Part shown: one piece after another, positions 34,096 through 55,279 of the stretch | Layout: every line of letters starts with the position of its first letter | Numbering within the stretch: position 1 is the stretch's first letter | IMG/VR virus record: IMGVR_UViG_3300011013_000014 | Coordinates: 1 to 55,279 of that record | Length of the DNA stretch: 55,279 nt | From: a virus | Taxonomy: Duplodnaviria > Caudoviricetes | Strand: one strand, 5' to 3' | Made by a program: the position numbers and the translations under genes | The notes under the pieces: generated by a model | Told to the model about the DNA's origin: nothing | Seen by the model: the letters and a program-made list of their open reading frames with translations, nothing else | Databases searched by the model: none

Positions 34096-34578
34096 GTGGA
34101 AAGTGCAATATATCATATATTGGATGAAAAGGATAGAGAGCATATAGGTTCGGCAGTTAATTTTACTAAAAAAAAGGGCGCTCACTTAACTCTCTTGCGG
34201 AATAATAGACATTATAATCCAAAATTGCAAAATGCCTTCAACAAATACGGTGAAGGTTTTTTTGTATTCGAACCTATAGTTTATTGTGAAAAAGAAGATC
34301 TATTAGGGACTGAACAAGTACTAATCGACAATCTTGAGCTTCATTACAATATAGCAAAATGTACCACAGCACCAATGATGGGGCGAAAACATACAAAGGA
34401 AGCTATTGCTAAGAGTACTAAGCGCGGTAAAGATCACTCCTGGCTTGGTCGGGCGCATACAGATGAGACTAAAGCGAAAGCAGCTCGTGAGTCTGGAGTA
34501 AGCGCTTCTTGCATTACTTGTGTTTGTAGAGGTAAAGTGATATCCTCCGGTGGATTTGGATTGAGGTACATAACATGA
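34096..34578 (+). pseudogene. degenerate GIY-YIG homing endonuclease with NUMOD3 repeats
   Basis: AIY...HIGSA in place of GIY..YIG, expected catalytic Arg missing, H.N..LQNAFNKYG, YNI, two G..HT.E..AK repeats fused directly to a truncated HTH. Confidence 0.65.
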
Positions 34579-36416
34579 GTAATGTTTCTTTGAAAGCAAA
34601 GCCGGATGCGCATCTTGATCTTTTTAAAGATTTAAAAAAGGAGCTTGCGGTTCTTGATCCCGTGGCGTTTGCCGAAAACCATTTAATGATAGACGGGAAG
34701 CCGTTTAATATGACTGGTACGGGCTGGAAGTTTATGACAGATGTTTATCGCGAGATAGCAGCGCAGGCAAGCAGCAAAGATGCCAAGCCAATTGTAATCC
34801 TCAAATCACGCCAGATAGGCGCCACATTGCTCGCTGCTGTGCTTTCCTTGTACTTTACAGCATCTGGGCTTTATGGGTCTGTGCACGGAAGGCCGCCTAT
34901 TCGTGTGCTACATGTTTTCCCAACCCTAGGGCTTATGGGCAAATATTCTAAAGATAAATTGAGCACGCTAATATCTAGCTCACAAGAAAACTTTATTGAA
35001 AAGAGAGCGGCCCATAATGATCCTGACTTAAAAAGAACAACTCCGGAGGATACGCTTACTGAAAAAACTTTTGCTGGCGGTAATAAGTTAAGAATTGATT
35101 CTCTTGGTCGCGATGCTGATCGCTTGCGTGGCCTATCCGAGGATGTACTGTTTTTTGATGAAATTCAAGATATGGGGCAAATAGCAGTTGAGACGGCCTT
35201 GCGAGTATTGACCATGGCCCAGTATGGACCTCCAGGGCAGGGGGTGCAGCTGTATTTCGGCACTCCTAAAAACACGGGTTCCTATTTTTGGGAGCTATGG
35301 AATATTTCTGATCAGCGGTTCTACCAGTTGCGCTGTACTGACTGCGGCCATTATTTCTTTTTTTACACATTGGGAAATGATGAATGGCGCACAATCTGGA
35401 TTGAGGGTTTTATTATTCAGTGCCCGGAGTGTGGTCACAGACAGGATAAGAAGGACGCTATCGAGGGCGGTCGTTGGGAAGCTACGAAGCCTGGCAAGGA
35501 CAAGTATGTGGGTTACCACATGAATGTGTTGTTAAATCCTATATTTACCAAGGAAGCGGTATTAGACTTGGACCCCAATGTTAATCCTACTCGTAGTCAC
35601 CGTGCTTGGCATAATGAGACTATGGGCGACTTTTTTAGTAGCTCTAACATGACCGTGTCCTTTGAAGATTTGCGAGCTACTTGTTTGAATCCAGAACGAG
35701 GCTTGGCTCGCAGGGTCCGCAATGACAAAGATAAAGTTTATATAATGGGAATTGACTGGGGCGATAAGATTGAGGCCGAAGATGATGATGGCGGGAAGGG
35801 CAAATCTTATACCGTAATAGTTATTCTTTCCTTTGATAAGCGAGGATTTTTTACTGTTGAGAACGCTTGGAAGTTACCTAAAAATGATTTTGAGTATAAA
35901 ATTGAGGTAATAGAGCATTTGTTTCGTATGTTTAAGATCCGTGTTTGTGTAGCGGATTATATGTGGGGAAATGATGTAGTTACTCATATGCAGACGGCAT
36001 TAGATTACGGTACTAAGTTTTTAGGGTGTATTAATAGTGGAAATGTGGGTAGTACTCTGACTTATAAGCCCAAGCAACTACAAGTAACTCTGAATAAAGA
36101 TCTAATGCTGGATGAAGTATTTTCTATGATGAAGAAAGGAAAGGTACAATTCCCCGCTAAAGATGATTCTTACGACCGTATTGAGTGGCTTTTAAGGCAT
36201 TGTGCATCAATGGAAATAACAGTTGCTAAGCGCCACGGTAGTCCGGTAAAGAAATACGTAAAAGGCATAGGGCCTAATGACGGCTTGATGGCCCTTATGT
36301 ATGCACTGGTAGCATATAAGTTTATAGCAACTAATGGTTTTAAGGGCTTGTCTAGCAGCAAGGCTGACGGGCAGCGGCCAATGCCTTCGGTTGCATATAT
36401 ACCAGGAATGAGGTAA
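34575..36416 (+). CDS. terL: terminase large subunit (GpA-like)
   Basis: ILKSRQIGAT Walker A, LFFDEIQD Walker B, GTP coupling motif, CTDC/CPEC zinc finger, GIDWG nuclease motif, late ND. Confidence 0.9.
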   Translation: MSNVSLKAKPDAHLDLFKDLKKELAVLDPVAFAENHLMIDGKPFNMTGTGWKFMTDVYREIAAQASSKDAKPIVILKSRQIGATLLAAVLSLYFTASGLYGSVHGRPPIRVLHVFPTLGLMGKYSKDKLSTLISSSQENFIEKRAAHNDPDLKRTTPEDTLTEKTFAGGNKLRIDSLGRDADRLRGLSEDVLFFDEIQDMGQIAVETALRVLTMAQYGPPGQGVQLYFGTPKNTGSYFWELWNISDQRFYQLRCTDCGHYFFFYTLGNDEWRTIWIEGFIIQCPECGHRQDKKDAIEGGRWEATKPGKDKYVGYHMNVLLNPIFTKEAVLDLDPNVNPTRSHRAWHNETMGDFFSSSNMTVSFEDLRATCLNPERGLARRVRNDKDKVYIMGIDWGDKIEAEDDDGGKGKSYTVIVILSFDKRGFFTVENAWKLPKNDFEYKIEVIEHLFRMFKIRVCVADYMWGNDVVTHMQTALDYGTKFLGCINSGNVGSTLTYKPKQLQVTLNKDLMLDEVFSMMKKGKVQFPAKDDSYDRIEWLLRHCASMEITVAKRHGSPVKKYVKGIGPNDGLMALMYALVAYKFIATNGFKGLSSSKADGQRPMPSVAYIPGMR

Positions 36417-39862: not shown

Positions 39863-41217
39863 TCCCTCTTTCTTTAGCGAAGCGTAAATATGAAAAGCAC
39901 TATTCCGAGAAGCGCAAGACTGACTCGGGAGAGGTCCGTATCTACTCTGAAGAGCATGTGGCTAAGAGGTGGAAGAAAAAAGTAGAAAAACTTAAGCGTC
40001 TTGAAAAAGACGTTATTAAGTTGCGGAAAGAATACAAGGGCCATTTGACTGATGATAATGATGCTAAGACTCGCGCTACTGCTGCCTTAATTGGGCTTAT
40101 AGACAATACCGCTATTAGAATAGGCAATGAGGATTCTGTTGCAGAATCAGGTTCTTTCGGAGCTACTACTTTGCGTAAGAAGCATGCTAAGGTTAAGGGC
40201 AATAAGGTTCGTTTTAAATTCAAGGGTAAAAGTGGGGTCCAGCAAGACATCTTGTTGGATGACGCAGCTGTTGTATCTGAGATCAAAAAGCTACTTAGCG
40301 GCAAGGGCGCCGAAGATGAGATATTTGAATACGAGCCGGGCAAGAGAGTGTCGGGCAAGATTGTCAATAGTTATTTAAAGAAATTTGATATTACGGCTAA
40401 AGACCTCAGGGGGTTTCACGCCAATAAAAAAATGACTGAGGCTTTGAAAAAGACCAAAGATTTTGACAAAGCATTAGAGCAGGTTGCTAAGGAAGTTGGA
40501 CATGAGGCCAAGACCCTGATGAATCAGTATTTGGATCCAGATTTTGTTAAGAAGCACAAGAAGGAGTCTTCATTCCTGCCTCCTCTGAGCAAGAGGGGTG
40601 CGGATTATAGGGCCGAGTTGGAAGACAAGGTAGATTCTATTTTGAGTGGTAGTGGTGGCAGGCAAGATGCCGAGGCTCCTATTGGATTTGGCCCAGCTCA
40701 ACAGCCTGAACAGGGCAAGGGACATGTAGTCCCTCCCTTGACTGAGCGTAGCAATGCCGTTTTGCCGCCCGATCAAATGGAACCTGTTGGCAGGAATAGA
40801 AAAGTCGGGCCGCACCATATTACTGACTTTTACGGACCACGAACCCATCCCACTACTGGCAAGCAGCAATTCCATAGTGGCGTAGATTTGCGAGCTAGGG
40901 AAGGCACGGAGATTTTGTCAATATTCTCAGGAGTAATAACCAGTACGGGCCATGACAATCTAAGCGGCAATTATGTCAGAGTTAAACACCCCGATGGCTT
41001 TAATTCTTCCTATTCTCACTTGAGTGAGGTATTAGTATCCGAGGGGCAGGGAGTCAGTGCCGGCCAGGTAGTTGGGCTAGCAGGTTCTACCGGGCGCGTA
41101 ACTGCGGCCCACCTTCATTTACGTTTGGAGTACAATGGAGAAAAAATAGATCCAGCTCCTTATTTGCGACAATACACAGTAATTGGGCGTACTATCCAGA
41201 ATAGGAGCAATTCATAA
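39859..41217 (+). CDS. topoisomerase IB catalytic domain fused to an M23 metallopeptidase
   Basis: IRIGN, FKGKSG, KDLR, VGH and QYLDP (Topo IB R-K-R-H-Y residues); HSGVDL, YSHL and HLH (M23 zinc motifs). Confidence 0.88.
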   Translation: MIPLSLAKRKYEKHYSEKRKTDSGEVRIYSEEHVAKRWKKKVEKLKRLEKDVIKLRKEYKGHLTDDNDAKTRATAALIGLIDNTAIRIGNEDSVAESGSFGATTLRKKHAKVKGNKVRFKFKGKSGVQQDILLDDAAVVSEIKKLLSGKGAEDEIFEYEPGKRVSGKIVNSYLKKFDITAKDLRGFHANKKMTEALKKTKDFDKALEQVAKEVGHEAKTLMNQYLDPDFVKKHKKESSFLPPLSKRGADYRAELEDKVDSILSGSGGRQDAEAPIGFGPAQQPEQGKGHVVPPLTERSNAVLPPDQMEPVGRNRKVGPHHITDFYGPRTHPTTGKQQFHSGVDLRAREGTEILSIFSGVITSTGHDNLSGNYVRVKHPDGFNSSYSHLSEVLVSEGQGVSAGQVVGLAGSTGRVTAAHLHLRLEYNGEKIDPAPYLRQYTVIGRTIQNRSNS

Positions 41218-41495
41218 TGCCAGAGTGGATGGGCAAGGCCCAGGAGAAAGACTTTGAGGCCGCGTCAAAAATAGTGAAGAAAGATATTGGAAAGAATAAA
41301 TTAAAGGACGATGATTATGCCTTGGTGATGCACATATGGAAAAACATGGAAAAGGCGCATCGTGGCAATAAAAAGAAGAAGAAGAAGTCTGAATTGGTGT
41401 CGGACATGATTTTGCTAGCAAATGAATTAGATTCGCGGGCTTTGTTTAATCATGCTGATAAGATAGATTTAATACTTAGTGGTTTAGCTAGCTAG
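41217..41495 (+). CDS. small basic protein ending in the LA[ND]xLD module
   Basis: C-terminal MILLANELDSRALFNHADKID. Confidence 0.7.
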   Translation: MPEWMGKAQEKDFEAASKIVKKDIGKNKLKDDDYALVMHIWKNMEKAHRGNKKKKKKSELVSDMILLANELDSRALFNHADKIDLILSGLAS

Positions 41496-41528
41496 ACGCT
41501 AGATGCACTAATGTTCTCGGGAGATATT

Positions 41529-43811
41529 ATGGTTGAAAATGTATACGAGTCTTTAAAGAAGGTTTTGCTATCTAGGCTTGAGAAGACTGCAGCGAGCGAT
41601 GATCTAGGACGTTTATTAGGTCAGATGTATCGTCGTTTAACTGGATATGAGAACAAGCTTGCAAATGCGGATGACGTTATAAGCCGCGTTCAGTCAGCTC
41701 CTGAGAATTCACTTGTAAACAAAGATGAGCAGCTGAGTAAGCTCATGCGAGATCGAGAGCGTATTGCTGATAGTATTAATACTTTGCGAGAGCAGTACGA
41801 GATTAAACAATTACAATACACCACTGAGCAAGGCCAGCCTTGGTCAGAACCAGAGCTTAGGCGCCCTCCATTGCAGTACAAGGAAGAAGAAAGGGCGGCA
41901 CCCAGCCCTAGGCAGGATGGCCCCATGCGTAAAGAGCGTCGGCCTGAGATGTGGGGTAGTAAATCTAGGGAAGATCGTAAAGCCAGAGAGCGTGCTCTGA
42001 GTGGTGAAGAGCCTGCTATGTCTGTTAAGGTAAAGGAGGAAGTTCCATTATCTGTAAGCAAAGATGCTCCTTCAGAGAGCAAGGCTCCCAGTGGTAAAGG
42101 CCCTATGTCGTTTAAAGAATGGCGCGAAGGGGTGGGCAAATCCCATCCAGCAGCTATGGATCTTGAGACAGAGACTGATTTCGCTGTAAGGAACGAAAAG
42201 GCCAGTGAGCTTTTCGGTGCTTACAAGCAGTATTTGGACTCTGTTACTGGGCAGCGCAGTGAAAGTTTGAGACCGTCTCATTTAGACATTGTCAAGCCTG
42301 AAGAGCTCGGAGAGATTTCCGCTTCAGATATAATGTCTAACTTATTTAGTCATATTTTAAAAATAACAGGCGCTGCTGAATCTGGCGGAGACAGCGTTTC
42401 TGGACAGATGGTGCAATATTTGTATTCAGTTGTGCAGGGTGCAGAAACAGACGTCCCTGATTTTATCGCTTTTAGTAAGCGGGACTGGATCTCTCACAAA
42501 GGAGAGCGTTTGCATGGGTATGCGGCAAATAAATTAGTAGCTGATGATTTAAACCGTGTTGCCAAAAATCTTGGCAGTTTTCTTGGTGATTTTGGCACGA
42601 GGTTAGAAGAATTGCCAGCTTCTCCGAGTGATGCTGATCGTAAACGATTAGCTAACCAATTAAATACTCAACTTGATAGTGCTGCAGGCTCTATTGTGAG
42701 TAGCCTGGTAAATAATTTGGAAAAAATGAATAAGGCTGATGTTATGCATGGTCGTGGAGAGGGCGCTCGTCTTGCTCCGGGGGAAGAGGGGTTTTTAGAG
42801 CCCAAGCCTGAGGCTAAAGAGCGATACGAGCCATTTATAGGCGGAACTTCAAGAATGCAGGAGCTCATGGGTGTTGATCCTCAGCGACCCTCTGGCACTC
42901 CAGAGGACCTTGGAGTGCTAGACACTCGTCGCCCTACTCCTTCGGACTTGAAGATGCTTTCATTTGAGGAATGGGGCAGGAGTGGCGCTGGTAAGGACTC
43001 TGTAGATGCATGGAGGGCCGGAGGAGGCGGTGCGGATGGCTTGAGTGCGTTATCTGACGAATATCAGGCTTATGTTCAAAAGCAAAAAATGCTTGGTCGC
43101 CAAATGAAGGAACAGCAGTCTGGTACAGGCGGGCAAACTCGCCGCCGTGTAGCACCTTTGAGACGACGCAGGCAGCGCAGCAAGAAGCGCCCAGGTACTG
43201 AGGTCCAGCAGGAGCATGGCTCCATACCGGCCCCTATTGATCTCCCCGATTTGGAAACAAGCAAGGCTAATGACTTGTTAGAGAAGATAGCTGTTAGGCG
43301 CAGGCATCGCAGGCACCTGATGAAACACAAGATGGAGGGCCGCCCAGTTGTGCGTGACATTGCACCGGAAACCCCTCTGGACGATCCAGAAGCATTTAAG
43401 GGAGAGCGCGCTACGACACCCTCGGACGAAGTCATGGAAGGCATGCACGAGGGCGCCAGGCTTATGAGGGAGCAGTTGGGAGAGCGGTCCGACCTAGTAA
43501 CTGATGATTTGTATAAGACCAGAGAGGAATTGATGGACCTATATGAAATTGTTAAAAACCAACACAGGCATGCTAAGCGCCAGCATAAGGCGGGCGACAT
43601 AAGTGATGTCAAATTCGGAAAATATGAAGCCCTTTTAAATAATCTTAAATCAGATATTAAAAACGTAGAAATGAAAATAAAGGATGCCGAAAGATTCATG
43701 CAAGAAGAGGGAACCTATAGCGATCCTCTGGGCGGGCAATCTGATAGAATCAGCCCTGTAGACCCTCGCTTCACTCCCTCTCGTTCTAGGAAAATGCATA
43801 GCCAAACATGA
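41529..43811 (+). CDS. large charged hypothetical protein, probably virion-internal
   Basis: SD GGGAG; N-terminal LEKTA; Arg-rich patches; internal SFxEW repeat. Confidence 0.75.
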   Translation: MVENVYESLKKVLLSRLEKTAASDDLGRLLGQMYRRLTGYENKLANADDVISRVQSAPENSLVNKDEQLSKLMRDRERIADSINTLREQYEIKQLQYTTEQGQPWSEPELRRPPLQYKEEERAAPSPRQDGPMRKERRPEMWGSKSREDRKARERALSGEEPAMSVKVKEEVPLSVSKDAPSESKAPSGKGPMSFKEWREGVGKSHPAAMDLETETDFAVRNEKASELFGAYKQYLDSVTGQRSESLRPSHLDIVKPEELGEISASDIMSNLFSHILKITGAAESGGDSVSGQMVQYLYSVVQGAETDVPDFIAFSKRDWISHKGERLHGYAANKLVADDLNRVAKNLGSFLGDFGTRLEELPASPSDADRKRLANQLNTQLDSAAGSIVSSLVNNLEKMNKADVMHGRGEGARLAPGEEGFLEPKPEAKERYEPFIGGTSRMQELMGVDPQRPSGTPEDLGVLDTRRPTPSDLKMLSFEEWGRSGAGKDSVDAWRAGGGGADGLSALSDEYQAYVQKQKMLGRQMKEQQSGTGGQTRRRVAPLRRRRQRSKKRPGTEVQQEHGSIPAPIDLPDLETSKANDLLEKIAVRRRHRRHLMKHKMEGRPVVRDIAPETPLDDPEAFKGERATTPSDEVMEGMHEGARLMREQLGERSDLVTDDLYKTREELMDLYEIVKNQHRHAKRQHKAGDISDVKFGKYEALLNNLKSDIKNVEMKIKDAERFMQEEGTYSDPLGGQSDRISPVDPRFTPSRSRKMHSQT

Positions 43812-44155
43812 TTAAATCTGCATCAATATTAGCCCTTAGTGTGTTGGCCAGTGAGCTTGACTCTGCTTATTTTTTTAATGAGGCAGACGGGCTTGATGTT
43901 ATGGCAAAAAACATGCTTTCAGATGGTCCAGAGTCAGCATTAGAAAAAAAGATATTTAATCACATTTTGGACGCGGCTCATGAGTTTTTAGAGCACAACG
44001 ATATAGACGCAGATCCTCTGTCACTTGTTGAAGAGCTGGCCATGTCTTTCTATGACACCTTTGAACGTCATTTTGATGAGAATTTAAGCAAAGATTTAGA
44101 TGATGGTCGGTTTGGCCTTAATGACTCTACGGACCCTACAGGAAAAGCAGCATGA
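43808..44155 (+). CDS. hypothetical protein with N-terminal LA[ND]xLD-type module
   Basis: MIKSAS...LSVLASELDSAYFFNEADGLD. Confidence 0.7.
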   Translation: MIKSASILALSVLASELDSAYFFNEADGLDVMAKNMLSDGPESALEKKIFNHILDAAHEFLEHNDIDADPLSLVEELAMSFYDTFERHFDENLSKDLDDGRFGLNDSTDPTGKAA

Positions 44156-45640: not shown

Positions 45641-46538
45641 TTGGAAATTGAGAAGAGCAAATATTCCATGCAGGATGTAAATAAATGGGCCGAGTCATAT
45701 AAGGACGTCGGTTCTTTTGCCGCTGTAGCCAGGCAGGCTGGTGTTAGCAGGGATACTGTAGGGCGGTGGCTAACAAAGTATAAGGACCTATTTGGTATTG
45801 TTTTCTTAAAAGATGTGAAAGCAGAATTTGAAAAACAAGGCCTGCGAAAATGCACAATATGTAATGACACTAAAAAACTTGTTTGCTTTGGCAAAAATAA
45901 TGCTTCAAGATGCAAGCCATGTGGTTGGAAAATAAGTGCTGAATGGCGCAATAATAATAGAGTCAGATCTAATGCTATATCGCGAGAATATAATGCAAGG
46001 AGAAGCGGAAGGGACCATGCTTTGGCAATTATTAATGGGCAAAAACGGTGTATTGACTGCTTGATGGCTTATGATATATCAGCCTTTTATAATGCACGTC
46101 GAACAAAAAAAGATGGCACCAGGGCCAAGGTAGCAAGGTGTAGGAAGTATTTTCTTGCTCGCGTTTCCAACAGAAGAGTTAATGATGTGGGATTCAAATT
46201 AGCTACTCATTTACGGACTAGAACTAGGCAGGCTATTAAGAACGGACAAAAAAAAGGGCTCGGCTGTTAGAGACCTTGGGTGTTCAGTCCCGGAATTAAA
46301 AACTTACTTAGAAGAAAAGTTTTATAAAAGCAAGGATGGCCAAAGCATGACTTGGTCCAATTATGGTTTCAATGGCTGGCATATAGACCACATAAGGCCA
46401 CTTGCCGCTTTTGATTTGGCTAATAGGAGTGAGTTTTTAAAAGCTTGTCATTTTACTAATTTGCAACCATTATGGGCGGCGGATAATTTTAAAAAAGGCA
46501 GTAAAATTATGTATGATGTAATGAAAAACGAGGGGTGA
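45641..46538 (+). pseudogene. frameshifted HNH (endonuclease VII-like) homing endonuclease
   Basis: HTH and CxxC repeats; removing one base near the A8 run at 46248-46255 joins to KGSAVRDLGCS..EL..YLE.KF...MTWSNYG..WHIDHIRPL...CHFTNLQPLWA.DN. Confidence 0.8.
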
Positions 46539-46545
46539 GGTAATA

Positions 46546-49500
46546 ATGTTTTTAAAACAAGCCACTGCTGTGGGATTTGAGCCAATTAATGGTGCCGCCA
46601 GAGACGCGGCCTTGTCTGCTTATGCTGATGAAATTAATGAAATGCTTGTCAAGCGTGCCAAGAAGGCCAAGAGGCTGATGCCAAAGCCGGATGATTTCAT
46701 TTTGGGCCATTGCATTATGATGCACGCAGGAGAGACGACCCTAATCAATCAAGCCACTGGCGAGCCAATTCTGAACAAAAAAGGGAAGCCTGTTTCTGGT
46801 TGTTTTGAGAAAGTCGTAGATGGCAATGGAAAAGACAGTGTGAGGTGGGTTTCTGCTGACGGTATAATGCCTTATAAAAATATGAACGGAGATATTTTTC
46901 CTGAAGAAGATTTAATTGCTAAGCACAAGGAGTGGATAGGAAAGCCTCTTTGCAAGGATCATATTAGCAGCTCTGTTGATGGCATACGCGGCATAGTGGT
47001 AGATACTTATTATGATACCAAGTTTAAACGAGTGCATGCTTTGTTTGCTCTTGATCGTAAAAACTACCCTGAGCTTGCTGCAAAAGTAGAGCGTGGTTAT
47101 GCAACTTCTGTTTCCATGGGAACGGCAGTGGGCAAGGCTATATGTACAGAGTGTTCTAATATAGCTACTACCGAGGCAGAGTATTGCGAGCATATACGTA
47201 AAAAGAGTAATTATGGTGAAATAAATAAAGATTTATCTCCCATAGAGCTCAGCTTGGTGGTCACAGGCGCAGATCCTGCTGCTAAGGTAAAAACTGTACT
47301 TGCTAGTTTGCGCGATTATGTAGCGCAAGCAGAAAATGAATTTCATGAGATTGCGAATGGCAATTCTGCTGATAAGCAATCTCTAGATAGTATCCTAGCA
47401 TCTATCAGAAAAGCGGAAATCAAGCTTGATGATGTTAGGATTTGCAAGATGGCAGATTTAGATCTTGATCATCTTGCAGAAAATATAGTGAATTTGGAGA
47501 GTCGTAAAAAGGGAGACCCTAATATTGAATTCTATGCACAACAGCTGCCTCAGGGAGTTGAAGAGTTGGCAGGAGTTCAGGATCAGGGATTATTGAGACG
47601 ACTTCTTCATCAAGCTAATAAACATGATCTTGAGTTTTATCAAAATGTGTCTGACGCTTTATCTCAGCTTGAAATGGCTGAGAGTGGCGAAAATGAACTA
47701 CTAATAAATAAAACTCATGATAACGGTGACGTTGGAAATCCTGGGCAAGAACATACTGTTGGCTTTACTGACAGTTCAGGATATACTCTTAACGAAGGGT
47801 TTTCCGACGATTTATCTACTGGCGATCTTTTGCCAATGGATAATAAGCCGCCACCGGGTGAATACATGCAAGGGTTTAGCTCCTTGTATACTGAACTGGA
47901 CAAAGTTGGAACGTCTGATGAAATCACTAGCCTGGAAAACAAGTTAGCTGGCTTAAAAGACCAAATTCTAAGTCTTGAAAAAACTCTTGAATACAATAAG
48001 GAGAAACCAATGAATTTTGATGAGATGAAGGAGCGTTCAATCAGTCGCCGTCTTGCATATCACCAGGGTACGGAGCCCAACCAGAAGTATGAACTTATGG
48101 GAGATCAGGATAAGATCCGTAACACGATGGATAAGCAAATGGTGGGAGATGAACTCGACTATGGTAGTGATGCTGAGGCATTAGCTGCTGGTGACAAAAG
48201 TAAGAAAGAACTAATGCAACGTGCTGCGCTTGAAGAGCGTAAGTTGCGTCGTGCTGCTTTGAGGGCCCAGATTGAAAAGGCCGCTAATAATGGAGAGATT
48301 GTTTATGATAAATCAGGGCAGCCTGCTGGCGTCAAAGGCACTGATGGCAAGTTCCGCGCAGTAACCCAGTCCGCTGATGATGGCGAAGAGGGTAAGAAAG
48401 AGTACAAGAAAAAGGCCTATTACCAGGGGTCTGAGGAGCCGAAGCCAGGTCAACCTCAGTATGAAAACTCTGGCAACCAAGACAAGGTTCGCAGCACTAT
48501 GGACAAACAAATGGTGGGCGAAGGTATGGAGTCTGGATCGGACGGCTTGCACCCTGGTTACAAGGGCAATTCTGATGAGTCAGTTAAAAAGTACTGGCAG
48601 CGAATGGCTAACCTGAAGGGCAAGCTCGTTAAGGGCGCTGCTTCTGACGCGCGTTGGGACATTTTTGCTGATGGCGAAAAAGTACTTACCGTTAATGCTA
48701 GCGATGTTTATGGCGCTGTTTGGAATGATAAAGTTTCTAAAGAGGCCGGTGCGGCTACTCACGGAGAGTACTTTCAAAACAAGGATTATGGCAAGCGCCT
48801 TCTGAATCTTGTACGCGAAGCAGAGGGCCCTATGGGCGCTGCTGAAGCACTTGAGCTCCCCGATGAGGCTGGCATGGCCGGTAAGGCTGGCATGGCCGGC
48901 GATGATGGGATGAGTGGAGCGAAGGATAAGGTTCTTGCTGCCATTTCGGCAGCACAGGATGCATTGGCCGATGCCGAGGCTGCTCTTGGTGCTTCTGGAA
49001 TCGTAGACGTTGAGGTCCCTGCTAGCGAAGACAACTTGGGCGGCCTGCCTATTGCTGCTTCTGCGAAACACTTAATTGAGGTTCGTGCCGAGGTTGAAGC
49101 CTCTATCGAAGAACTTTCATTTTTGGGCCAAAACATGAGTAATGATGAGTCAGTAGCCAGTGCTGCGACTGAGGCTGTTAATGATGCTAACGCAGTTATT
49201 GCTTATTACAAAGGCCTCGTTACTGAGGCTAAAAGCTCTACTGAGAAAACCGCATCTGATATGTTGCAAGACCTGCTCAAAGTTCGCGCTGCCAAGCGTG
49301 CTGCTGTAGCTGCCAAGGCTATTAGGACCACTGCTAATGCAGACCTGAGTAATGCAGGGGTTGATGAGCTGATTTCTGCCGCTTCTGATGAATGGGCAGA
49401 TCTTCCTGATGACTGGGCTGATTTACCAAAACCAGAGGTTGATACGACGCGTCCTGGAGATGCTTACGATATGCTTGTTGATGATATGGCCGCTAAAGAC

Positions 49501-50541
49501 GGTAAAGACAATGATGATGATAAGGATGACGAGGGCAAAGACGAGGACGATAAGGGTGATGAGGACGATAAGGGTGATGAGGACGATAAGGGTGACAAAG
49601 ATGATAAGAAAGACGATAAGGACGAAGACGAAAAAGATGCCGATGGCATGATGTATGCCAAAGACGGCAAATACAAGGAAGACGATAAAGAGGGCGATGA
49701 GGACGAGGACGAAAAAGATGCCAAGGGTGGTAAATGCCCTGAAGATGATGTCTCTGTTGAAGAAGAAAAAATGATGGAGGTCAAAGTTGAGGAGCATAAT
49801 GAGGATGCCGGCGCGCACAAAGAGTCTAGCAAAACATGGCGTAATCGCCTAGTTGCCATGGCGAAAGGTGAGTACCAGTCTACTTATGAGGAAGCTCGTA
49901 CTGATGCCGGTGCAAAGGTTGCTGTAGACGCTAATGTCTCTGATGACCTTGACCTGGTTGAAAACCTCCACACTCAGCATGCCAAGCATGTGGATGTCGC
50001 AACTTCCGAGCCTCGCAATGTTCGACTGGCTAAGGCGCTTAATAACGCTATAGTCAAGGGAGCTGTGGATGCTTCTAAGTTGGACGACCTTGTTGCTCTT
50101 GGCATGGTTGATGCTGACGCGGTTAAATACTGGAATGATCTATATGGCGAGGGTGACCAAGCCAGTGGCGCATTTGGTAATGAGCTTTCCAAAGAATTTG
50201 GGAATCATAAGAAAACCGCCTCTAACAAGGACAGCCTAAATGAGCATGAAGCTCGTTTGCGCCGCTCTTTCATGCTCGGATTGGAAGCCCAAGAAAAAGG
50301 CCTTATCAGTAAGAGCGCTTCTGCTCTTAATGAGTATGTAGATAATGTCTCTACGCTCCCTGACGAGGTATTCCAAAGTGTAAGGAACATTGTTTCTCAG
50401 CACAAGAAAGCTTCGGCTTCTGTCACACCTCAGGTAGGTATCAATCACGACACCACTGGAGAGCAGGAAACTGTTGTTAGGACTGCTTCAGTCCGCAACG
50501 GATCCCCTTCTGTCCGTGATCTCGCTGGTATCTTTAGCTGA
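46546..50541 (+). CDS. prohead protease fused to a long scaffold-like region
   Basis: NMNGDIF, WIGKPLCKDH (His), VSMG (Ser), CTEC..CEH and IELSLV..GADP.A resemble HK97/assemblin-type proteases; followed by an acidic, Ala-rich repetitive region. Confidence 0.78.
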   Translation: MFLKQATAVGFEPINGAARDAALSAYADEINEMLVKRAKKAKRLMPKPDDFILGHCIMMHAGETTLINQATGEPILNKKGKPVSGCFEKVVDGNGKDSVRWVSADGIMPYKNMNGDIFPEEDLIAKHKEWIGKPLCKDHISSSVDGIRGIVVDTYYDTKFKRVHALFALDRKNYPELAAKVERGYATSVSMGTAVGKAICTECSNIATTEAEYCEHIRKKSNYGEINKDLSPIELSLVVTGADPAAKVKTVLASLRDYVAQAENEFHEIANGNSADKQSLDSILASIRKAEIKLDDVRICKMADLDLDHLAENIVNLESRKKGDPNIEFYAQQLPQGVEELAGVQDQGLLRRLLHQANKHDLEFYQNVSDALSQLEMAESGENELLINKTHDNGDVGNPGQEHTVGFTDSSGYTLNEGFSDDLSTGDLLPMDNKPPPGEYMQGFSSLYTELDKVGTSDEITSLENKLAGLKDQILSLEKTLEYNKEKPMNFDEMKERSISRRLAYHQGTEPNQKYELMGDQDKIRNTMDKQMVGDELDYGSDAEALAAGDKSKKELMQRAALEERKLRRAALRAQIEKAANNGEIVYDKSGQPAGVKGTDGKFRAVTQSADDGEEGKKEYKKKAYYQGSEEPKPGQPQYENSGNQDKVRSTMDKQMVGEGMESGSDGLHPGYKGNSDESVKKYWQRMANLKGKLVKGAASDARWDIFADGEKVLTVNASDVYGAVWNDKVSKEAGAATHGEYFQNKDYGKRLLNLVREAEGPMGAAEALELPDEAGMAGKAGMAGDDGMSGAKDKVLAAISAAQDALADAEAALGASGIVDVEVPASEDNLGGLPIAASAKHLIEVRAEVEASIEELSFLGQNMSNDESVASAATEAVNDANAVIAYYKGLVTEAKSSTEKTASDMLQDLLKVRAAKRAAVAAKAIRTTANADLSNAGVDELISAASDEWADLPDDWADLPKPEVDTTRPGDAYDMLVDDMAAKDGKDNDDDKDDEGKDEDDKGDEDDKGDEDDKGDKDDKKDDKDEDEKDADGMMYAKDGKYKEDDKEGDEDEDEKDAKGGKCPEDDVSVEEEKMMEVKVEEHNEDAGAHKESSKTWRNRLVAMAKGEYQSTYEEARTDAGAKVAVDANVSDDLDLVENLHTQHAKHVDVATSEPRNVRLAKALNNAIVKGAVDASKLDDLVALGMVDADAVKYWNDLYGEGDQASGAFGNELSKEFGNHKKTASNKDSLNEHEARLRRSFMLGLEAQEKGLISKSASALNEYVDNVSTLPDEVFQSVRNIVSQHKKASASVTPQVGINHDTTGEQETVVRTASVRNGSPSVRDLAGIFS
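48010..50541 (+). CDS. putative nested in-frame scaffold protein (843 aa)
   Basis: Strong SD TAAGGAG 6 nt before in-frame ATG at 48010 (Met489), where the repetitive region starts. Confidence 0.6.
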   Translation: MNFDEMKERSISRRLAYHQGTEPNQKYELMGDQDKIRNTMDKQMVGDELDYGSDAEALAAGDKSKKELMQRAALEERKLRRAALRAQIEKAANNGEIVYDKSGQPAGVKGTDGKFRAVTQSADDGEEGKKEYKKKAYYQGSEEPKPGQPQYENSGNQDKVRSTMDKQMVGEGMESGSDGLHPGYKGNSDESVKKYWQRMANLKGKLVKGAASDARWDIFADGEKVLTVNASDVYGAVWNDKVSKEAGAATHGEYFQNKDYGKRLLNLVREAEGPMGAAEALELPDEAGMAGKAGMAGDDGMSGAKDKVLAAISAAQDALADAEAALGASGIVDVEVPASEDNLGGLPIAASAKHLIEVRAEVEASIEELSFLGQNMSNDESVASAATEAVNDANAVIAYYKGLVTEAKSSTEKTASDMLQDLLKVRAAKRAAVAAKAIRTTANADLSNAGVDELISAASDEWADLPDDWADLPKPEVDTTRPGDAYDMLVDDMAAKDGKDNDDDKDDEGKDEDDKGDEDDKGDEDDKGDKDDKKDDKDEDEKDADGMMYAKDGKYKEDDKEGDEDEDEKDAKGGKCPEDDVSVEEEKMMEVKVEEHNEDAGAHKESSKTWRNRLVAMAKGEYQSTYEEARTDAGAKVAVDANVSDDLDLVENLHTQHAKHVDVATSEPRNVRLAKALNNAIVKGAVDASKLDDLVALGMVDADAVKYWNDLYGEGDQASGAFGNELSKEFGNHKKTASNKDSLNEHEARLRRSFMLGLEAQEKGLISKSASALNEYVDNVSTLPDEVFQSVRNIVSQHKKASASVTPQVGINHDTTGEQETVVRTASVRNGSPSVRDLAGIFS
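49543..49596 (+). repeat. 3 x 18-bp coding tandem repeat (EDDKGD)
   Basis: GAGGACGATAAGGGTGAY three times, inside a D/E/K low-complexity tract. Confidence 0.9.
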
Positions 50542-50563
50542 GGTACTTTTAATATACCCTAGT

Positions 50564-50634
50564 GGCGGGGACACATACATATTGGCACAGAGTTGCATTA
50601 TGGTGTCCCCGCCCCTTTTTTTAAGGGGCTTTTT
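50564..50634 (+). terminator. overlapping hairpins / terminator after the protease-scaffold gene
   Basis: GGCGGGGACAC...GTGTCCCCGCC followed by T7; overlapping GCCCCTT...AAGGGGC followed by T5. Confidence 0.65.
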
Positions 50635-50635
50635 C

Positions 50636-50803
50636 ATGTTTGATTTTTATTTAAAATACATCGGTAGTAACCTTGATCTGCAAGACATAGTTGATTTAAA
50701 AGTCAGAGGACTCTCTAGTGAAGAAATAGAGGGCTATTTGGATTTTTTCCAATATGACAATAAGTACGGTGCTCAGCATGAGCAAAATGGAGAAAAACAA
50801 TGA
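50636..50803 (+). CDS. small hypothetical protein
   Basis: MFDFYLKYIG... placed after the hairpin; stop overlaps the next ATG. Confidence 0.45.
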   Translation: MFDFYLKYIGSNLDLQDIVDLKVRGLSSEEIEGYLDFFQYDNKYGAQHEQNGEKQ

Positions 50804-51069
50804 ATACATTCTTGGGAAGTAATAATCGTGAGTTGGAACTAGTCCATGCTTTAGCAGATAGCTTTCAGCTTACTGATTCAATTAATAAGACAGCCAGTGT
50901 TGCTGAATCAACAGTGCTTCCTGAGCCTATGAGCTCGCTTGCATCTGTGGTTGAAACACTGGTCAAGTGCGCTGATGCGCTTGATGGTGCAGGAGAGTCT
51001 ACTGATAAGGTAGACAATGTTCTTTCTTTTATTGAGAAAGAATTTTTCTCAACCTCTGCTGCAGAATAA
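50800..51069 (+). CDS. small protein made largely of a KTAS site and the LA[ND]xLD module
   Basis: SD GGAG; INKTAS...LVKCADALDGAGESTDKVD. Confidence 0.72.
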   Translation: MNTFLGSNNRELELVHALADSFQLTDSINKTASVAESTVLPEPMSSLASVVETLVKCADALDGAGESTDKVDNVLSFIEKEFFSTSAAE

Positions 51070-51081
51070 CAGGGGGCCCTA

Positions 51082-51774
51082 GTGTCGCTTAAAGTAATAC
51101 AATCAGGGCTGGGGCGCCCTGTGCAATACCCAGTAGATCCAAACGATGTGTTTGAGCCTGGTATGATTGCACAGTTGCGCGTTATAGGCAATGATGTCTT
51201 TTTGGGAGTGTCAGATGGCACTGCCCCAATGGGCATTATTGATGATATAAAAACAGTAGCTTTTACCCAGCGAGTAGTTGATGAGATTGTTGACATAGCA
51301 GTCCCGTCAAGTACTTTTGATGGTTATAATTTTGTTAGCACAGCGGTGTTCTCAAATGAGCTTATGAATGCGCACATAGTGGCCAACAGCTTTGTTGCTG
51401 ATTATCCTGGATTGCAGTTAAATCCGGTTAATGGAGTCATAAGGGCCCCGATAGGTAGCGTTCTTAATTATACCTCACCAGGCGCAGGTCAGCCAGACAC
51501 TATACGGACTAAGGTAAGTTATGCATTTCAAGTGCCTAATATTCCGGGTGAGGACACGACTGTTGGCTCAGGGCGGATGACGGTTTGGATTACACGCGGT
51601 GTGTTTGAAACAGACCAGTTCGAGCTGGTTCCTTACTCAGTTAATGCTACTCTTTTTGTAAGTTCTGCAGGAAAGCTGACGACCGAACAAACGCGTAGTG
51701 ATCAGCCAGGGGTAGGGATGTGTACTTTGCCGCCCACCAGTCATAATGCTAAATTACAATTTATTTGGTTTTAA
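51082..51774 (+). CDS. head decoration/cement-like structural protein
   Basis: Beta-rich: FEPGMIAQL, SDGTAPMGI, DTTVGSGRMTVW, FETDQFE, LFVSSAGKLTT; located after the scaffold. Confidence 0.5.
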   Translation: MSLKVIQSGLGRPVQYPVDPNDVFEPGMIAQLRVIGNDVFLGVSDGTAPMGIIDDIKTVAFTQRVVDEIVDIAVPSSTFDGYNFVSTAVFSNELMNAHIVANSFVADYPGLQLNPVNGVIRAPIGSVLNYTSPGAGQPDTIRTKVSYAFQVPNIPGEDTTVGSGRMTVWITRGVFETDQFELVPYSVNATLFVSSAGKLTTEQTRSDQPGVGMCTLPPTSHNAKLQFIWF

Positions 51775-51786
51775 AAGGAGCTCTCA

Positions 51787-52152
51787 ATGACATTTGATAC
51801 ACCAGAAGATAATTGGAAGAATAGCGAAGTTATGCGTAATTTTGTTGAGTTTTATCCTACAGAAGAGAAGAGCATAAGTGCTGAGGCAGATAGCCAGATA
51901 CAAGTAGAAGCCTTTAGCGAAGAGTTTGATGAAAAATATGATTATTTTGATGATATGTATAACCAAGTCACTTTGCAGGCTCTTGGGAATATTGATACAG
52001 CGATAAGTCGTTTGTCGTCCGTAGCGCAGTCAGCGGCAGATAATGGTAATATAAAAGCGGCTTACCTTGTAGAAAGAACAATGCAGGCGCTTAGAGATGT
52101 GGAACCGAATTTGATGCCAGAAGTAGTAAGTAATGAAATAGGAGTTAAATGA
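51787..52152 (+). CDS. hypothetical protein with a degenerate repeated module
   Basis: SD AAGGAG; LSSVAQSAADNG...AAYLVE. Confidence 0.7.
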   Translation: MTFDTPEDNWKNSEVMRNFVEFYPTEEKSISAEADSQIQVEAFSEEFDEKYDYFDDMYNQVTLQALGNIDTAISRLSSVAQSAADNGNIKAAYLVERTMQALRDVEPNLMPEVVSNEIGVK

Positions 52153-53093
52153 TGCGTCATATAAATATGGAAGACAGTGAGGTATTTCAATTGTTTTCTG
52201 AAATTGCTCACAAAAATGGTATTTTAGACAAGAAAGCCAGCCTTTTATATCCTGATTTCGATATCAGCGAACATAATCCAGAATTGGATATCAAAGTAGC
52301 TGTGGCCTCTGAGCACCAAATGTATGGCGTTACTAGTGAGAGCGGAGAAGACCTGGTTGGATCTGCTCATCCTGGCGGCGGCATTAGTGTGGATGACTCA
52401 GCCAGTGGCGACCTTTCTAAGGTAGAAACGATTGTAGAGCAACATAAGCGGTGGCGAGATGTTGCAGAAAGTATGCCCACTGGAAAAGTGGCCTCTTTAG
52501 CTAAGGAGCTCGTAGCCCTTGCTGATGCGCTTGACGAAGGTGGCTTTATAGAGTTAGCAGACTTAATAGAGAAAGAGGTAATCAAGATTGCTCTCCCTTT
52601 AGCTAACGCCCAGGAAGAAGGTGCTCTGGCCACTCTTCCTGGGGAATGGGAAAAAGAATTAAAAATAGAAAAGCCAGAATTAGATATCGGAAAACATAAA
52701 CCGGTAAATTTGCCAGAAGGACTTCCTGGGTCCGGCGATAAGTTTCCCTGGAACAAGGATAAAGTGAAGGAACTTGTTCCAGAGCCAATTGAGAATAAGC
52801 CACTGACCGATAAGCAGAAAATGCTTAATATTCAGAGGTTGATCAATAAAAAGGTAAGTGGCTTGCATCACTCCTATCAAGTTCCGGAGAACGGATATTT
52901 GGGAGATAGCCAGACGTATGACATGGCCACTAAAGTGTTCGGTCTTAGACCCGGCGTGCATTATCGTAATTGGGATCAGTTTGCGAGTGCATTAAAAGGC
53001 GCAAAGTTGCCAGACTGGGCATATATTAAGACATATTATGGCGACATGTTAAACGAGCATGGTAAGGCGCCGTACGAGGTGGCTGATGTCTGA
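52149..53093 (+). CDS. probable virion protein with AHPGGG and LA[ND]xLD modules and a possible peptidoglycan-binding-like C-terminus
   Basis: KKAS, AHPGGG, KVAS, LVALADALDEGG..LADLIE, KIA; IQRLIN...ENGYLG..T. Confidence 0.72.
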   Translation: MMRHINMEDSEVFQLFSEIAHKNGILDKKASLLYPDFDISEHNPELDIKVAVASEHQMYGVTSESGEDLVGSAHPGGGISVDDSASGDLSKVETIVEQHKRWRDVAESMPTGKVASLAKELVALADALDEGGFIELADLIEKEVIKIALPLANAQEEGALATLPGEWEKELKIEKPELDIGKHKPVNLPEGLPGSGDKFPWNKDKVKELVPEPIENKPLTDKQKMLNIQRLINKKVSGLHHSYQVPENGYLGDSQTYDMATKVFGLRPGVHYRNWDQFASALKGAKLPDWAYIKTYYGDMLNEHGKAPYEVADV

Positions 53094-54129
53094 TCCAAGA
53101 AAATACTTATATGATATACACCCTGTGGGTTCTGAGTCTCAGAACGCCATGGCGCATCCTGGTGGGGGCACTGAAACTGTAGAGATTGCCTCCGGAGAGG
53201 GCCTTGTGGAGGACTTGTATGAGTCTCACTTGGTAGCGCTAGAAATAGCTTACAGCACTCCGGTAGCTAGTGAGTTAGCCAAGCTGGCTAACGATTTGGA
53301 AGATCAGGGACTTGTTAGCTTGGCTAATAATGTCGATGATACTTTGGCTAATTTCGTAAAACAAGCAAATCCGCTAATGAAGGAGTTGCGCGACGCCCTG
53401 GGTGTGCTGCGCTCAATAATTCGGGGTGCTGATTTTGGCCTAGTCGCTTCTATGCGCGACGCTAAGAGCATTATGAAGTCGTGGATTTCAGATGTGGAAT
53501 CTAATACTAGAATGGGAAAGTACGATGATGCACTTATTGCAGTAAATAGGCTTGGGAGCGAAGAGCTTCTCACTGGTTCTTTTGGGCAGATATACGAGGT
53601 TGATCTTGAAAATGATTTAACAGAGGATAATTATTTTGAATGGGTTCGAAATGTGGCCAAAACAAAGGCTATTTTGGAGCAGCTTGGCCAGCCTAAATCA
53701 GCCCCCGAGGAAACACATAGACAGCGCGTAGAGAAGGAGTCTGTTCAGCCTGCTGCCACTCCCAAGGTGCCTGCTAAGGTGCCTGAGTTCTCTCCAGAGA
53801 GCAAACAGAGGTATGATATGTTAATGGTAGAGGTGTCAAAGATTAATGACTTATGGACAGCCATAGATTATCAGCTAGATGAACGCTCTGGCAATATCAT
53901 AGATGCTGATCAGTTGGCCAAATACGAGGCTAGTGCGCGCAGCATTACTCAAAGGTACATACAAACACTTACATATTGGAAAAAACACCGAGAAGCAATT
54001 AGCTCTCCGCATGAGCTCAGTATGAGAAGGTATGGTGATGTGTTAAGTGTTGTGAATCGTGTATTGTCTACTTTGGTAAAAATGAATTCAGAATTAGATA
54101 GAGCTTATAATGCTTCAGTGAATGGCTGA
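53086..54129 (+). CDS. probable virion protein with AHPGGG and LA[ND]xLD leader ending at KQA
   Basis: SD GAGGTG; leader paralogous to the upstream gene, unrelated C-terminal body. Confidence 0.72.
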   Translation: MSDPRKYLYDIHPVGSESQNAMAHPGGGTETVEIASGEGLVEDLYESHLVALEIAYSTPVASELAKLANDLEDQGLVSLANNVDDTLANFVKQANPLMKELRDALGVLRSIIRGADFGLVASMRDAKSIMKSWISDVESNTRMGKYDDALIAVNRLGSEELLTGSFGQIYEVDLENDLTEDNYFEWVRNVAKTKAILEQLGQPKSAPEETHRQRVEKESVQPAATPKVPAKVPEFSPESKQRYDMLMVEVSKINDLWTAIDYQLDERSGNIIDADQLAKYEASARSITQRYIQTLTYWKKHREAISSPHELSMRRYGDVLSVVNRVLSTLVKMNSELDRAYNASVNG

Positions 54130-54147
54130 ACAGGGGCACAGTGATTT

Positions 54148-55279
54148 ATGTCATTAGACGAATTAATTAGCGATGTTGCTAGCGGCGGCACGGGGGCGGG
54201 CAGTGGGCGCCAAAGAATAACGTTGGACACGGTTGATGTTAGTCCTAGCTCTGAGACCAGGCAGCGAAAAGCTCCTGAGTCTGGCAATTATTTACAAATA
54301 ATTGCTTTGCAACAATTCCTTATAGCTAGAGAATTACCAGTAAGCGTTAAGAACCCTTATGGTGCTGACGGTAAGTTCGGGCAAACCACCAATAAATCAT
54401 TGATTACATTCATTACTGATTCTTCGAAGCATAAGGATGAATCTGATGTTGCAATTGCAGCCGCACTACAGAGCAGTGGACTGGTAAGCGATAAATGGCA
54501 AATAACAGCAGGAAATCTACCTTCTGTATATAATTTAATAAAGCACAAAGGCACTGCTCCTCCTAAGAAGAAAATAGTTAAGGCTCCCTCTGGTCTTTCA
54601 ACACTTGAGTTTACAACCATGGGCAAGACTGTGAATATGCCATTGTTGGTTGCTATGAAGTCTTTGGGCAATCTGGATAAGGTTTTAAAAGATTTTATTA
54701 TTAATCCATTGATGAAAAGGGAAGGGATTGAGGTACCAGCTGGTTATAGTGGATATGACTTAAAACAACTTTTGCGCATGTTGCGGCAAATAAAGGTCGA
54801 TATGATGAACGCCCTTACCAGCAACCCTCTGCATGGAACTAGCCGGCGCTTCCAATACGGGGCTCATTTGCTTGATAATAGCATGATGACGCTTATAAAT
54901 CGATATGATGTGAAACTAAAACAACAAGGTACTAAGGCGCCCAAGGTAAAGGCTATAGATGAAATTAGAAAAGACTATGCTGAGTATTTGTATTTGGCCG
55001 GTGATGCTAACTTGCGCAGCATGCTAGAGACGCGGGCTCTTCGCGTATTCGAAGGCCATGGAGCTGTGGATAAAGATGGCAATATACGGTCGAAACAATT
55101 ATATGTGCATGCTAAAGAGCGTGTTAGGCGAGAGATGGAAGCTCTTTTGAAAAGATATAAGGGGCGCATCGTTCCTAAGGACAGTGCTCCAGGGGTCCCT
55201 AAGCCTGAAGCCACCTCTCCTTCATTGGATAAAGCAATAAGCAAGCTTCCTCCTGCGGGCAAAAGGCCGGCGGGAGAGA
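54148..55279 (+). CDS. protein with a peptidoglycan-binding-like domain (partial, runs off the window)
   Basis: Own translation: MSLDELISD...IIALQQFL...GADGKFGQTT..SL..F, matching the PG_binding_1 pattern; no stop seen before the window end. Confidence 0.65.
   Translation, partial: MSLDELISDVASGGTGAGSGRQRITLDTVDVSPSSETRQRKAPESGNYLQIIALQQFLIARELPVSVKNPYGADGKFGQTTNKSLITFITDSSKHKDESDVAIAAALQSSGLVSDKWQITAGNLPSVYNLIKHKGTAPPKKKIVKAPSGLSTLEFTTMGKTVNMPLLVAMKSLGNLDKVLKDFIINPLMKREGIEVPAGYSGYDLKQLLRMLRQIKVDMMNALTSNPLHGTSRRFQYGAHLLDNSMMTLINRYDVKLKQQGTKAPKVKAIDEIRKDYAEYLYLAGDANLRSMLETRALRVFEGHGAVDKDGNIRSKQLYVHAKERVRREMEALLKRYKGRIVPKDSAPGVPKPEATSPSLDKAISKLPPAGKRPAGE

Follow-up and report, generated by a model that had tools for sequence, protein, structure and literature searches.

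To our knowledge, the way in which giant-phage heads acquire their many internal and ejected proteins has been worked out in two model groups only, T4 and the phiKZ-like phages. The internal proteins of T4 reportedly carry a capsid targeting sequence (CTS), a finding ascribed to Mullaney and Black in 1996. The CTS comprises ~10-19 amino acids (aa), is strictly N-terminal, ends in the protease site [LI]xE, comes off during maturation and is enough to carry foreign proteins into the prohead; gp67 and gp68 of the same phage are auxiliary scaffold or core proteins. The available part of PMC10052503 describes the prohead proteases of T4 and of phiKZ/SPN3US-type phages as cutting after Glu and stripping targeting propeptides of 20-254 aa off internal or ejected proteins. 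For phage SPN3US, the same part of that source gives propeptides of 111-254 aa on gp53 and gp54, whose removal has been demonstrated by mass spectrometry, and names gp245, with the motif AxE, as the protease (PMC10052503). The present analysis concerns a ~95-aa protein module found in a piece of an uncultured giant phage genome, the 55,279 bases of IMG/VR virus record IMGVR_UViG_3300011013_000014, hereafter the window. Two neighbouring open reading frames, ORF A and ORF B, carry this module on otherwise unrelated products, and a homologous segment is found in the C-terminal region of a putative prohead protease-scaffold fusion encoded upstream of them (Table 1).

The module consists of two parts, both acidic. 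The first unit follows the pattern Y..T.E.GE.L...AHPGGG, a variable loop and G.VE..xE.[HQ]....[IV]A...P, and the second is a helical hairpin with the pattern L..LA..LD..G....A..[IV]D..I (mean net charge -4.0 and -2.4, respectively). A-H-P and V-E do not vary across 21 sequences drawn from three protein families. A third unit, an N-terminal helix (N-helix; W/L..SEV[MF]..F..IA.E.GL), occurs in the family of ORF A (family A) and not in that of ORF B (family B). A module profile built from 12 proteins of families A and B (8 and 4 members), with the scaffolds left out, was run on the 1055 six-frame segments of the window. It matched ORF A (E 1e-39), ORF B (E 1e-29), 41205-41492 (E 9.9e-5), 50782-51066 (E 1.1e-4) and the scaffold (E 6.5e-4), the next match beyond these five having an E value of 0.1. 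The window and nine related loci (L003-L011) were also searched with a separate profile for each unit. These loci had been obtained from viral contigs by a search with the family A alignment; viral-contig scans with ORF A or ORF B as a lone query gave no relatives. The first-unit, hairpin and N-helix profiles found 25, 44 and 20 matches in real sequence and none in shuffled sequence, and all 20 N-helix matches lie at ORF N-termini. The hairpin and the N-helix are each also found alone and are thus separable units; in relatives, the solitary hairpin sits in small proteins, often at the C-terminus.

ORF A and ORF B overlap by 8 nucleotides (nt) and most likely start at 52152 and 53086. GGAG stands 7 nt upstream of the former start and GAGGTGG upstream of the ATG of the latter, and the respective homologues begin with MRH and MS. 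An earlier note on this DNA had located the shared segments, and a related one in the scaffold, at positions that prove exact: Y58 of ORF A (52323), Y9 of ORF B (53110) and V1138 of the 1331-aa ORF (49957). The continuation it described, VAS followed by LA[ND]xLD and then KIA (or KQA), is present in both proteins, and its view that they are unrelated past the module is confirmed. By BLASTP, the two proteins share 31 of 97 residues (32%, E 1e-7), and the next segment has an E value of 12. Comparison of the family A and family B profiles with hhalign aligns a single stretch of 90 columns (97.9% probability, E 4e-13), with no further match, so that homology along the full length fails. Mean pairwise identity in family A is 50% ahead of the module, 48% within it and 20% behind it; in family B it is 55% within and 20% behind. 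No Pfam or PHROG family matched the family B tail.

The scaffold segment is encoded by a 1331-aa ORF whose product is putatively a protease fused to a scaffold. Residues ~34-288 match the head maturation protease family phrog_18299 (E 1.3e-11), and the nearest relatives of the protease domain come from Bacillus phage G (gp19; 31% identity, E 2e-19) and cluster C mycobacteriophages. Beyond ~290 aa, the protein is long, acidic and of low complexity, with a conserved C-terminal stretch of ~240 aa. The module copy is shorter than in the carriers and lies ~195-215 aa ahead of the C-terminus. ORF A aligns with scaffold aa 1122-1165 (19/46 identical, E 4e-4) and ORF B with aa 1137-1210 (25/75 identical, E 0.003). 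The scaffold-free module profile scores E <= 0.01 at the homologous place in seven of ten scaffolds (the window, L003, L004, L007, L008, L010 and L011), with per-genome scaffold E values of 2.6e-5 and 5.2e-5. An hhalign comparison of the 21-sequence module alignment with a 10-sequence alignment of the scaffold C-terminus spans 59 columns at 92.3% probability (E 5.6e-7). Three scaffolds (L007, L008 and L010) retain FHPSGG or AHPQGG together with a VE-type motif, [FI]E[TR]I; the window scaffold has lost HP-GG. The scaffold copy is therefore a true, though degenerate, homologue of the module. The similarity to the scaffold proposed in the earlier note is significant, with the correction that the window copy lacks AHPGGG and aligns from VE onward only.

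Two further features of the scaffold family deserve mention. At 47980-48700 (scaffold aa ~480-720), an ~85-aa unit (AY.QG...DKQM.G.G.E.GSDGLHPGY...) is tandemly duplicated, and this duplication is kept in all nine full-length scaffolds. These repeats, considered as extra copies of the first unit on account of their GLHPGY motif, were rejected (hhalign 0.3% probability). A scaffold homologue of 879 aa (P0164) is labelled "ribosomal protein S15P/S13E" by one source, which is probably a mis-annotation.

The module constitutes a large unnamed domain family that is absent from Pfam and PHROGs. Its profile matches 1661 metagenomic protein clusters at E <= 0.001, 656 at <= 1e-10 and 36 at <= 1e-30, each cluster being a 50% identity representative in a library without names or genomic context. 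Four related giant-phage records searched whole gave 6-10 profile matches each. The full module occurs there in 2-3 genes per record, all inside the head cluster, and hairpin-only matches lie far from that cluster in two records (G001 at 240 and 283 kilobases (kb); G003 at 15, 59 and 66 kb). Pfam-A has no family over the module in 51 carriers (0/51), and none of its families, at E <= 1, matched more than two of 21 module pieces; PHROGs v4 has no family over the module either (0/14 and 0/15 proteins). Searching ORF A by tblastn against 50,697 deposited phage records returned nothing at E <= 0.1, and blastn of the region against phages gave no match. The whole genome of Bacillus phage G, which has the nearest protease, contains no module match. 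A full-text literature search for three module motif strings found no paper. Sequence searches of the PDB returned only designed helical proteins (best E 0.0026) and, with the scaffold as query, nothing useful, and the ESM Atlas yielded one viral cluster with a score of 0.79, under the tool's own noise level.

The proteins that carry the module are diverse. A set of 159 carriers was formed from the 12 proteins of families A and B and the best rows of the 1661-cluster list. Once the module and the first 35 residues are masked, these fall into 39 single-linkage groups (sizes 82, 14, 8, 6, 6, 3, 3, 3, 3 and 2, plus 29 singletons), the largest of which is probably over-merged; attachment of the module to different payloads, as the earlier note had it, is supported. 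The N-helix is detectable in 109 of the 159, and a strongly hydrophobic 19-mer is present in 45. N-helix, spacer and module together make up ~150 aa at the N-terminus of families A and C, and in family C a hydrophobic segment follows ~10 aa behind the hairpin. In four carriers (P0136, P0141, P0144 and P0152), the protein stops directly behind the hairpin, which is preceded by a membrane-like segment or by an N-terminal helix belonging to the carrier itself. Peptidoglycan-binding (PG_binding_1) or endolysin-like matches were found in P0013, P0060, P0048 and a 1054-aa carrier of L005. P0048 also has DUF6582 (PF20223, E 4.9e-16) at aa 225-285, directly behind the module.

The first unit is rich in loops and has a short helix that ends in P, and the second is an antiparallel pair of helices. 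AlphaFold2 (AF2) models were made of ORF A aa 1-160 (56-sequence alignment; mean predicted local distance difference test score (pLDDT) 75, predicted template modelling score (pTM) 0.34) and of the scaffold C-terminus (16 sequences; mean pLDDT 60, pTM 0.29). In the ORF A model, a helix at aa 10-21 (10-residue blocks: pLDDT 82 at aa 1-10, 95 at aa 11-20) is followed by a disordered spacer and by a short helix that terminates at A-H. Residues 73-93 (PGGG...VE) form an exposed loop whose confidence is low to moderate (10-residue-block pLDDT ~55-73). Behind this loop, a helix at aa 94-107 leads to an antiparallel hairpin formed by aa 112-129 and 133-157, at pLDDT 88-95. The scaffold model repeats the order of the module: a disordered loop leads to V-E, just after which a helix of 13 residues starts. 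Foldseek searches with the ORF A model gave 43 rows at E <= 10 in the PDB and 273 rows in BFVD, none of them at E <= 0.001; the best-scoring BFVD entry, an uncharacterised protein of 407 aa from an uncultured phage, has E 0.46. With VIA-align wide, the same model retrieved generic helical hairpins only (best Z 7.0).

The reading that we favour, held with about as much doubt as belief, is that a scaffold-derived docking module recruits internal or ejected proteins to the prohead. The module would descend from, or share ancestry with, a segment of the scaffold C-terminal domain, and its carriers, encoded between the protease-scaffold gene and (in relatives) the major capsid gene, would be accessory head proteins. 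During prohead building, the module would dock its carrier to the scaffold core, or to the scaffold segment's own partner, and would thereby let differing working parts enter the prohead, whether peptidoglycan-binding-like, hydrophobic or membrane-type, or helical. The carriers would most likely be internal or ejected proteins, and we infer that they co-assemble into the prohead core. Docking is argued for by the location of the genes between scaffold and capsid, the homology to the scaffold, the stronger conservation of the module than of its partners and the free combination of those partners. The hydrophobic and peptidoglycan-binding-like partners, together with the nearby M23 peptidase, suggest that the proteins are ejected and then work on the host envelope. 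In a less certain step, the protease domain of the fusion may cleave both the carriers and the scaffold itself at, or close to, the V-E that they have in common, at the boundary between loop and helix. V-E is a reasonable candidate site because this boundary is exposed and is shared with a scaffold due for degradation, and related proteases of this type cleave behind Glu. Homology, modular distribution, neighbourhood and conservation are established from sequence, whereas head location, docking and cleavage are inferred.

Several observations weigh against this picture. Three of the ten scaffolds (L005, L006 and L009) score above E 0.01 with the module profile, yet they align in the scaffold C-terminus alignment. 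The low pTM of both AF2 models does not support a compact domain, and phage head genes may not account for all of the metagenomic clusters. The sequence varies three residues ahead of the invariant E, in contrast to the T4 and SPN3US sites. Position matters as well: with N-terminal defined as a module start within the first 110 residues and C-terminal as an end within 25 residues of the C-terminus, the module is N-terminal in 80 of the 159 carriers, internal in 68 and C-terminal in 11, counts that are blurred if some carriers are gene fragments. "Leader", the term of the earlier note, is therefore too narrow, and the single cassette that it envisaged gives way to separable units. For the same reason, an N-terminal leader removed to free its payload fails for some carriers, and a cut at V-E would leave the hairpin on the payload where the module is N-terminal and take it away where the module is C-terminal.

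Such positional freedom is what would be expected if the module were a permanent anchor, staying on its carriers to fix them to the inner capsid face or the portal of the mature head, with the scaffold binding the same site only transiently. N-terminal, internal and C-terminal positions would all work for a docking domain rather than for a propeptide, the hairpin is confidently predicted and well conserved, and the third residue before E is not conserved in the manner of any known cleavage motif. We nevertheless regard this alternative as unlikely, as an invariant V-E in an exposed loop, common to a scaffold that departs, is easier explained by processing, and an acidic module would sit uneasily beside packaged DNA. 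Rather unlikelier is that the carriers are themselves auxiliary scaffold or core proteins, among them a membrane-anchored initiator (family C), with the prohead released by a cut in the module. The homology to the scaffold, the place of the genes between scaffold and capsid, the long family B tail with no Pfam or PHROG match and the hydrophobic segment directly behind the family C module all suit this view. The available part of PMC10052503 adds that proheads of SPN3US are believed to require protease action to come free of the inner membrane. Peptidoglycan-binding-like parts, however, make little sense in a cytoplasmic scaffold, and tails that are extremely diverse and only 20% identical are unlike essential core parts.

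Further from the docking reading is the idea that the module has nothing to do with heads and is a general oligomerisation or envelope-targeting element, its neighbourhood and scaffold likeness being incidental. Hairpin-only matches far from the head cluster (in G001, in G003 and at 27023-27907 of the window) fit this idea, and hydrophobic and peptidoglycan-binding-like parts would suit envelope proteins too. It appears improbable, given that the full module is confined to the head cluster in the four whole-searched records and that the first unit specifically is homologous to the scaffold. The adjacency and overlap of ORF A and ORF B could also reflect tandem duplicates whose C-terminal parts diverged past recognition, with a scaffold likeness due to chance. 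This is hardly credible when the profile comparison shows nothing past the module, families A and B are each conserved separately in relatives, the module is present in many other architectures, and the scaffold match recurs in seven of ten scaffolds, with no matches in shuffled controls. The favoured docking module can, conversely, be extended into a bolder scheme, which we consider doubtful: a three-unit, shuffle-able address kit (amphipathic N-helix, scaffold-copied AHP...VE unit and acidic hairpin) that a large clade of uncultured giant phages would use, in varying combinations and positions, to load a dozen or more kinds of protein, membrane-inserting and peptidoglycan-binding ones included, into the prohead by imitating scaffold contacts, with V-E as the site of a protease whose specificity is unlike the T4 and phiKZ rules. 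The same cut might then free the prohead from the membrane in the case of hydrophobic carriers.

Table 1. Features of the window that bear on the module and its gene neighbourhood (coordinates in bases of the window).
Feature	Coordinates	Strand	Remarks
Large terminase	34575-36416	+	
Portal, 1046 aa	36422-39562	+	
Topoisomerase-IB-like / M23 peptidase protein, 452 aa	39859-41217	+	Directly after portal gene
92-aa protein	41217-41495	+	Hairpin at extreme C-terminus; module profile E 9.9e-5, profile positions 28-92
115-aa protein	43808-44155	+	Weak N-terminal hairpin-like stretch, E 0.88 only, visible by eye; not established
Putative prohead protease-scaffold fusion, 1331 aa	46546-50541	+	
Scaffold module copy (degenerate)	49882-50076	+	Lacks AHPGGG; keeps VE, following helix and P
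Terminator-like GC hairpin and T run	50611-50629	+	70 nt 3' of scaffold gene; consensus scan only
Hairpin-unit protein, 89 aa	50800-51069	+	Hairpin ~50887-51033; module profile E 1.1e-4, profile positions 45-91
121-aa protein	51787-52152	+	N-helix ~51811-51849 (E 0.0066); weak hairpin ~51985-52092 (E 0.57 to 1.1)
ORF A (family A), 313 aa	52152-53093	+	N-helix, module, variable tail
ORF A N-terminal helix unit, aa 1-34	52152-52253	+	N-helix profile E 1.1e-10
ORF A first unit (AHPGGG ... VE ... E.H ... A ... P)	52317-52487	+	First-unit profile E 4.6e-24
ORF A hairpin (LAxxLDxxG...A..D)	52488-52592	+	Hairpin profile E 1.3e-8
ORF B (family B), 347 aa	53086-54129	+	Module at very N-terminus, then ~250-aa unrelated tail
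ORF B module	53104-53364	+	First unit ~53107-53262 (E 4.8e-17), hairpin ~53263-53355 (E 8e-10)

The window record has a CheckV completeness of 15%, so the full genome should span several hundred kb. All credible genes of the window lie on the + strand, and the head-gene block makes up its right half. The block runs from the terminase and portal genes through the topoisomerase-IB-like / M23 gene and several uncharacterised genes to the scaffold and carrier genes; the window itself contains no major capsid gene. Gene order in L003 is scaffold, three genes for products of 113, 228 and 100 aa, A, B, two genes for products of 307 and 470 aa, C (481 aa), a gene for a 237-aa product and the major capsid gene (phrog_2522). 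In three loci, this capsid gene is in pieces (L003:16847-19890, L005:15361-19840 and L009:14208-16288), which are split by LAGLIDADG homing endonuclease ORFs in L003 and L005; it is unbroken in L004, L006, L008 and L010. An Rfam scan of the interrupted L003 region found no intron family, and one of window positions 46000-55279 found no match. The terminator-like hairpin behind the scaffold gene suggests a transcription boundary ahead of the carrier genes.

Between 50800 and 54129, every gene except 51082-51774 encodes at least one unit, since the 89-aa protein has the hairpin and the 121-aa protein an N-helix and a weak hairpin (Table 1). Homologues of the 121-aa protein in L005, L006 and L009 match the hairpin profile at E 2e-5 to 3e-5. 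The exception, 51082-51774, encodes a 230-aa protein of no known family that carries none of the units, is the best conserved of the block (45-64% identity in all nine loci) and may be a structural head protein. Outside the head block, a 294-aa product (27023-27907) shows two hairpin-like stretches by eye (weak profile E values of 0.037 and 0.64). The 766-aa ORF at 41511-43811, which has no homologue in the nine loci, reads V-E-N-V-Y-E-S at residues 8-14, compared with V-E-D-L-Y-E-S in ORF B, and might represent the V-E site in a minimal form placed at the N-terminus. The gene following the portal gene encodes a protein in which a match to the eukaryotic-type topoisomerase I catalytic core (PF01028, E 1.3e-28) is joined to a C-terminal M23 peptidase (PF01551, E 8.8e-28). 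Two free-standing nuclease genes are also present, a homing endonuclease gene directly upstream of the terminase gene (34096-34578) and an HNH / endonuclease VII-like gene directly upstream of the scaffold gene (45641-46270).

The module offers a sequence-defined handle on a third group of giant phages, uncultured and, with 1661 clusters at 50% identity, apparently large. It also suggests the copying of a scaffold segment as a possible origin of address labels. The invariant V-E is a testable candidate protease site, and if docking is true, the module, or its hairpin alone, becomes a candidate label by which proteins of choice could be loaded into capsids.

Other assembly systems resemble the module in single respects. 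Encapsulin cargo-loading peptides are short, usually C-terminal and bind directly to a shell of the same capsid fold. They resemble the module as address labels that load diverse cargo, and differ from it in that no scaffold or protease is involved; we know of no sequence relation between the two. The P22 scaffolding protein has a basic C-terminal helix-turn-helix that binds coat. This small helical hairpin recalls that of the module, which stands at the extreme C-terminus of several small proteins here, but the module hairpin is acidic, and the P22 domain is absent among the Foldseek and VIA-align rows (generic hairpins only). In herpesvirus UL26/UL26.5 and lambda C/Nu3, protease and scaffold genes are nested or fused. 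As in the window, a protease is fused to a scaffold and a scaffold segment occurs on more than one protein; the shared sequence in those systems, however, comes from in-frame overlapping genes, whereas the window has separate genes in which diverged, homologous copies of the module are joined to unrelated partners.

Functionally, the T4 CTS and the ejection propeptides of phiKZ-like phages are closest to the module, which is a member of neither class because rules of size and position, cleavage motif and sequence all differ. Like the module, the CTS is a common sequence on otherwise unrelated proteins, and it is believed to direct them to the scaffold core of the prohead. The cleavage after Glu to which the CTS is tied is the work of a prohead protease broadly similar in kind to that of the window. 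The module, at ~95 aa, is built of two or three separable units, may stand at any position and is homologous to the scaffold, and so departs from the short N-terminal form of the CTS; no sequence relation between them was found (no PHROG or phage match). The SPN3US propeptides likewise occur in giant phages, are of a length similar to that of the segment shared here and are common to paralogues; families A and C have an N-terminal region of ~150 aa that is comparable, while other carriers have the module inside or at the C-terminus. The propeptide carriers are packaged and ejected proteins, as those of the module are proposed to be. The module lacks AxE or [SAG]xE, the motif cut by gp175/gp245-type proteases, the second residue before the invariant E being K, L, V, F, Y or another, and it belongs to a clade that differs from the phiKZ-like phages in its protease domain. 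No sequence homology to propeptide families of the phiKZ/SPN3US type was detected in PHROGs (0/15 and 0/14) or by tblastn of the 50,697 phage records. Homology of the SPN3US propeptides to the scaffold is not reported in the available part of PMC10052503, whereas the module is homologous to its scaffold. What is new here is a large unnamed domain family with a composite, shuffle-able build and homology to the scaffold itself.

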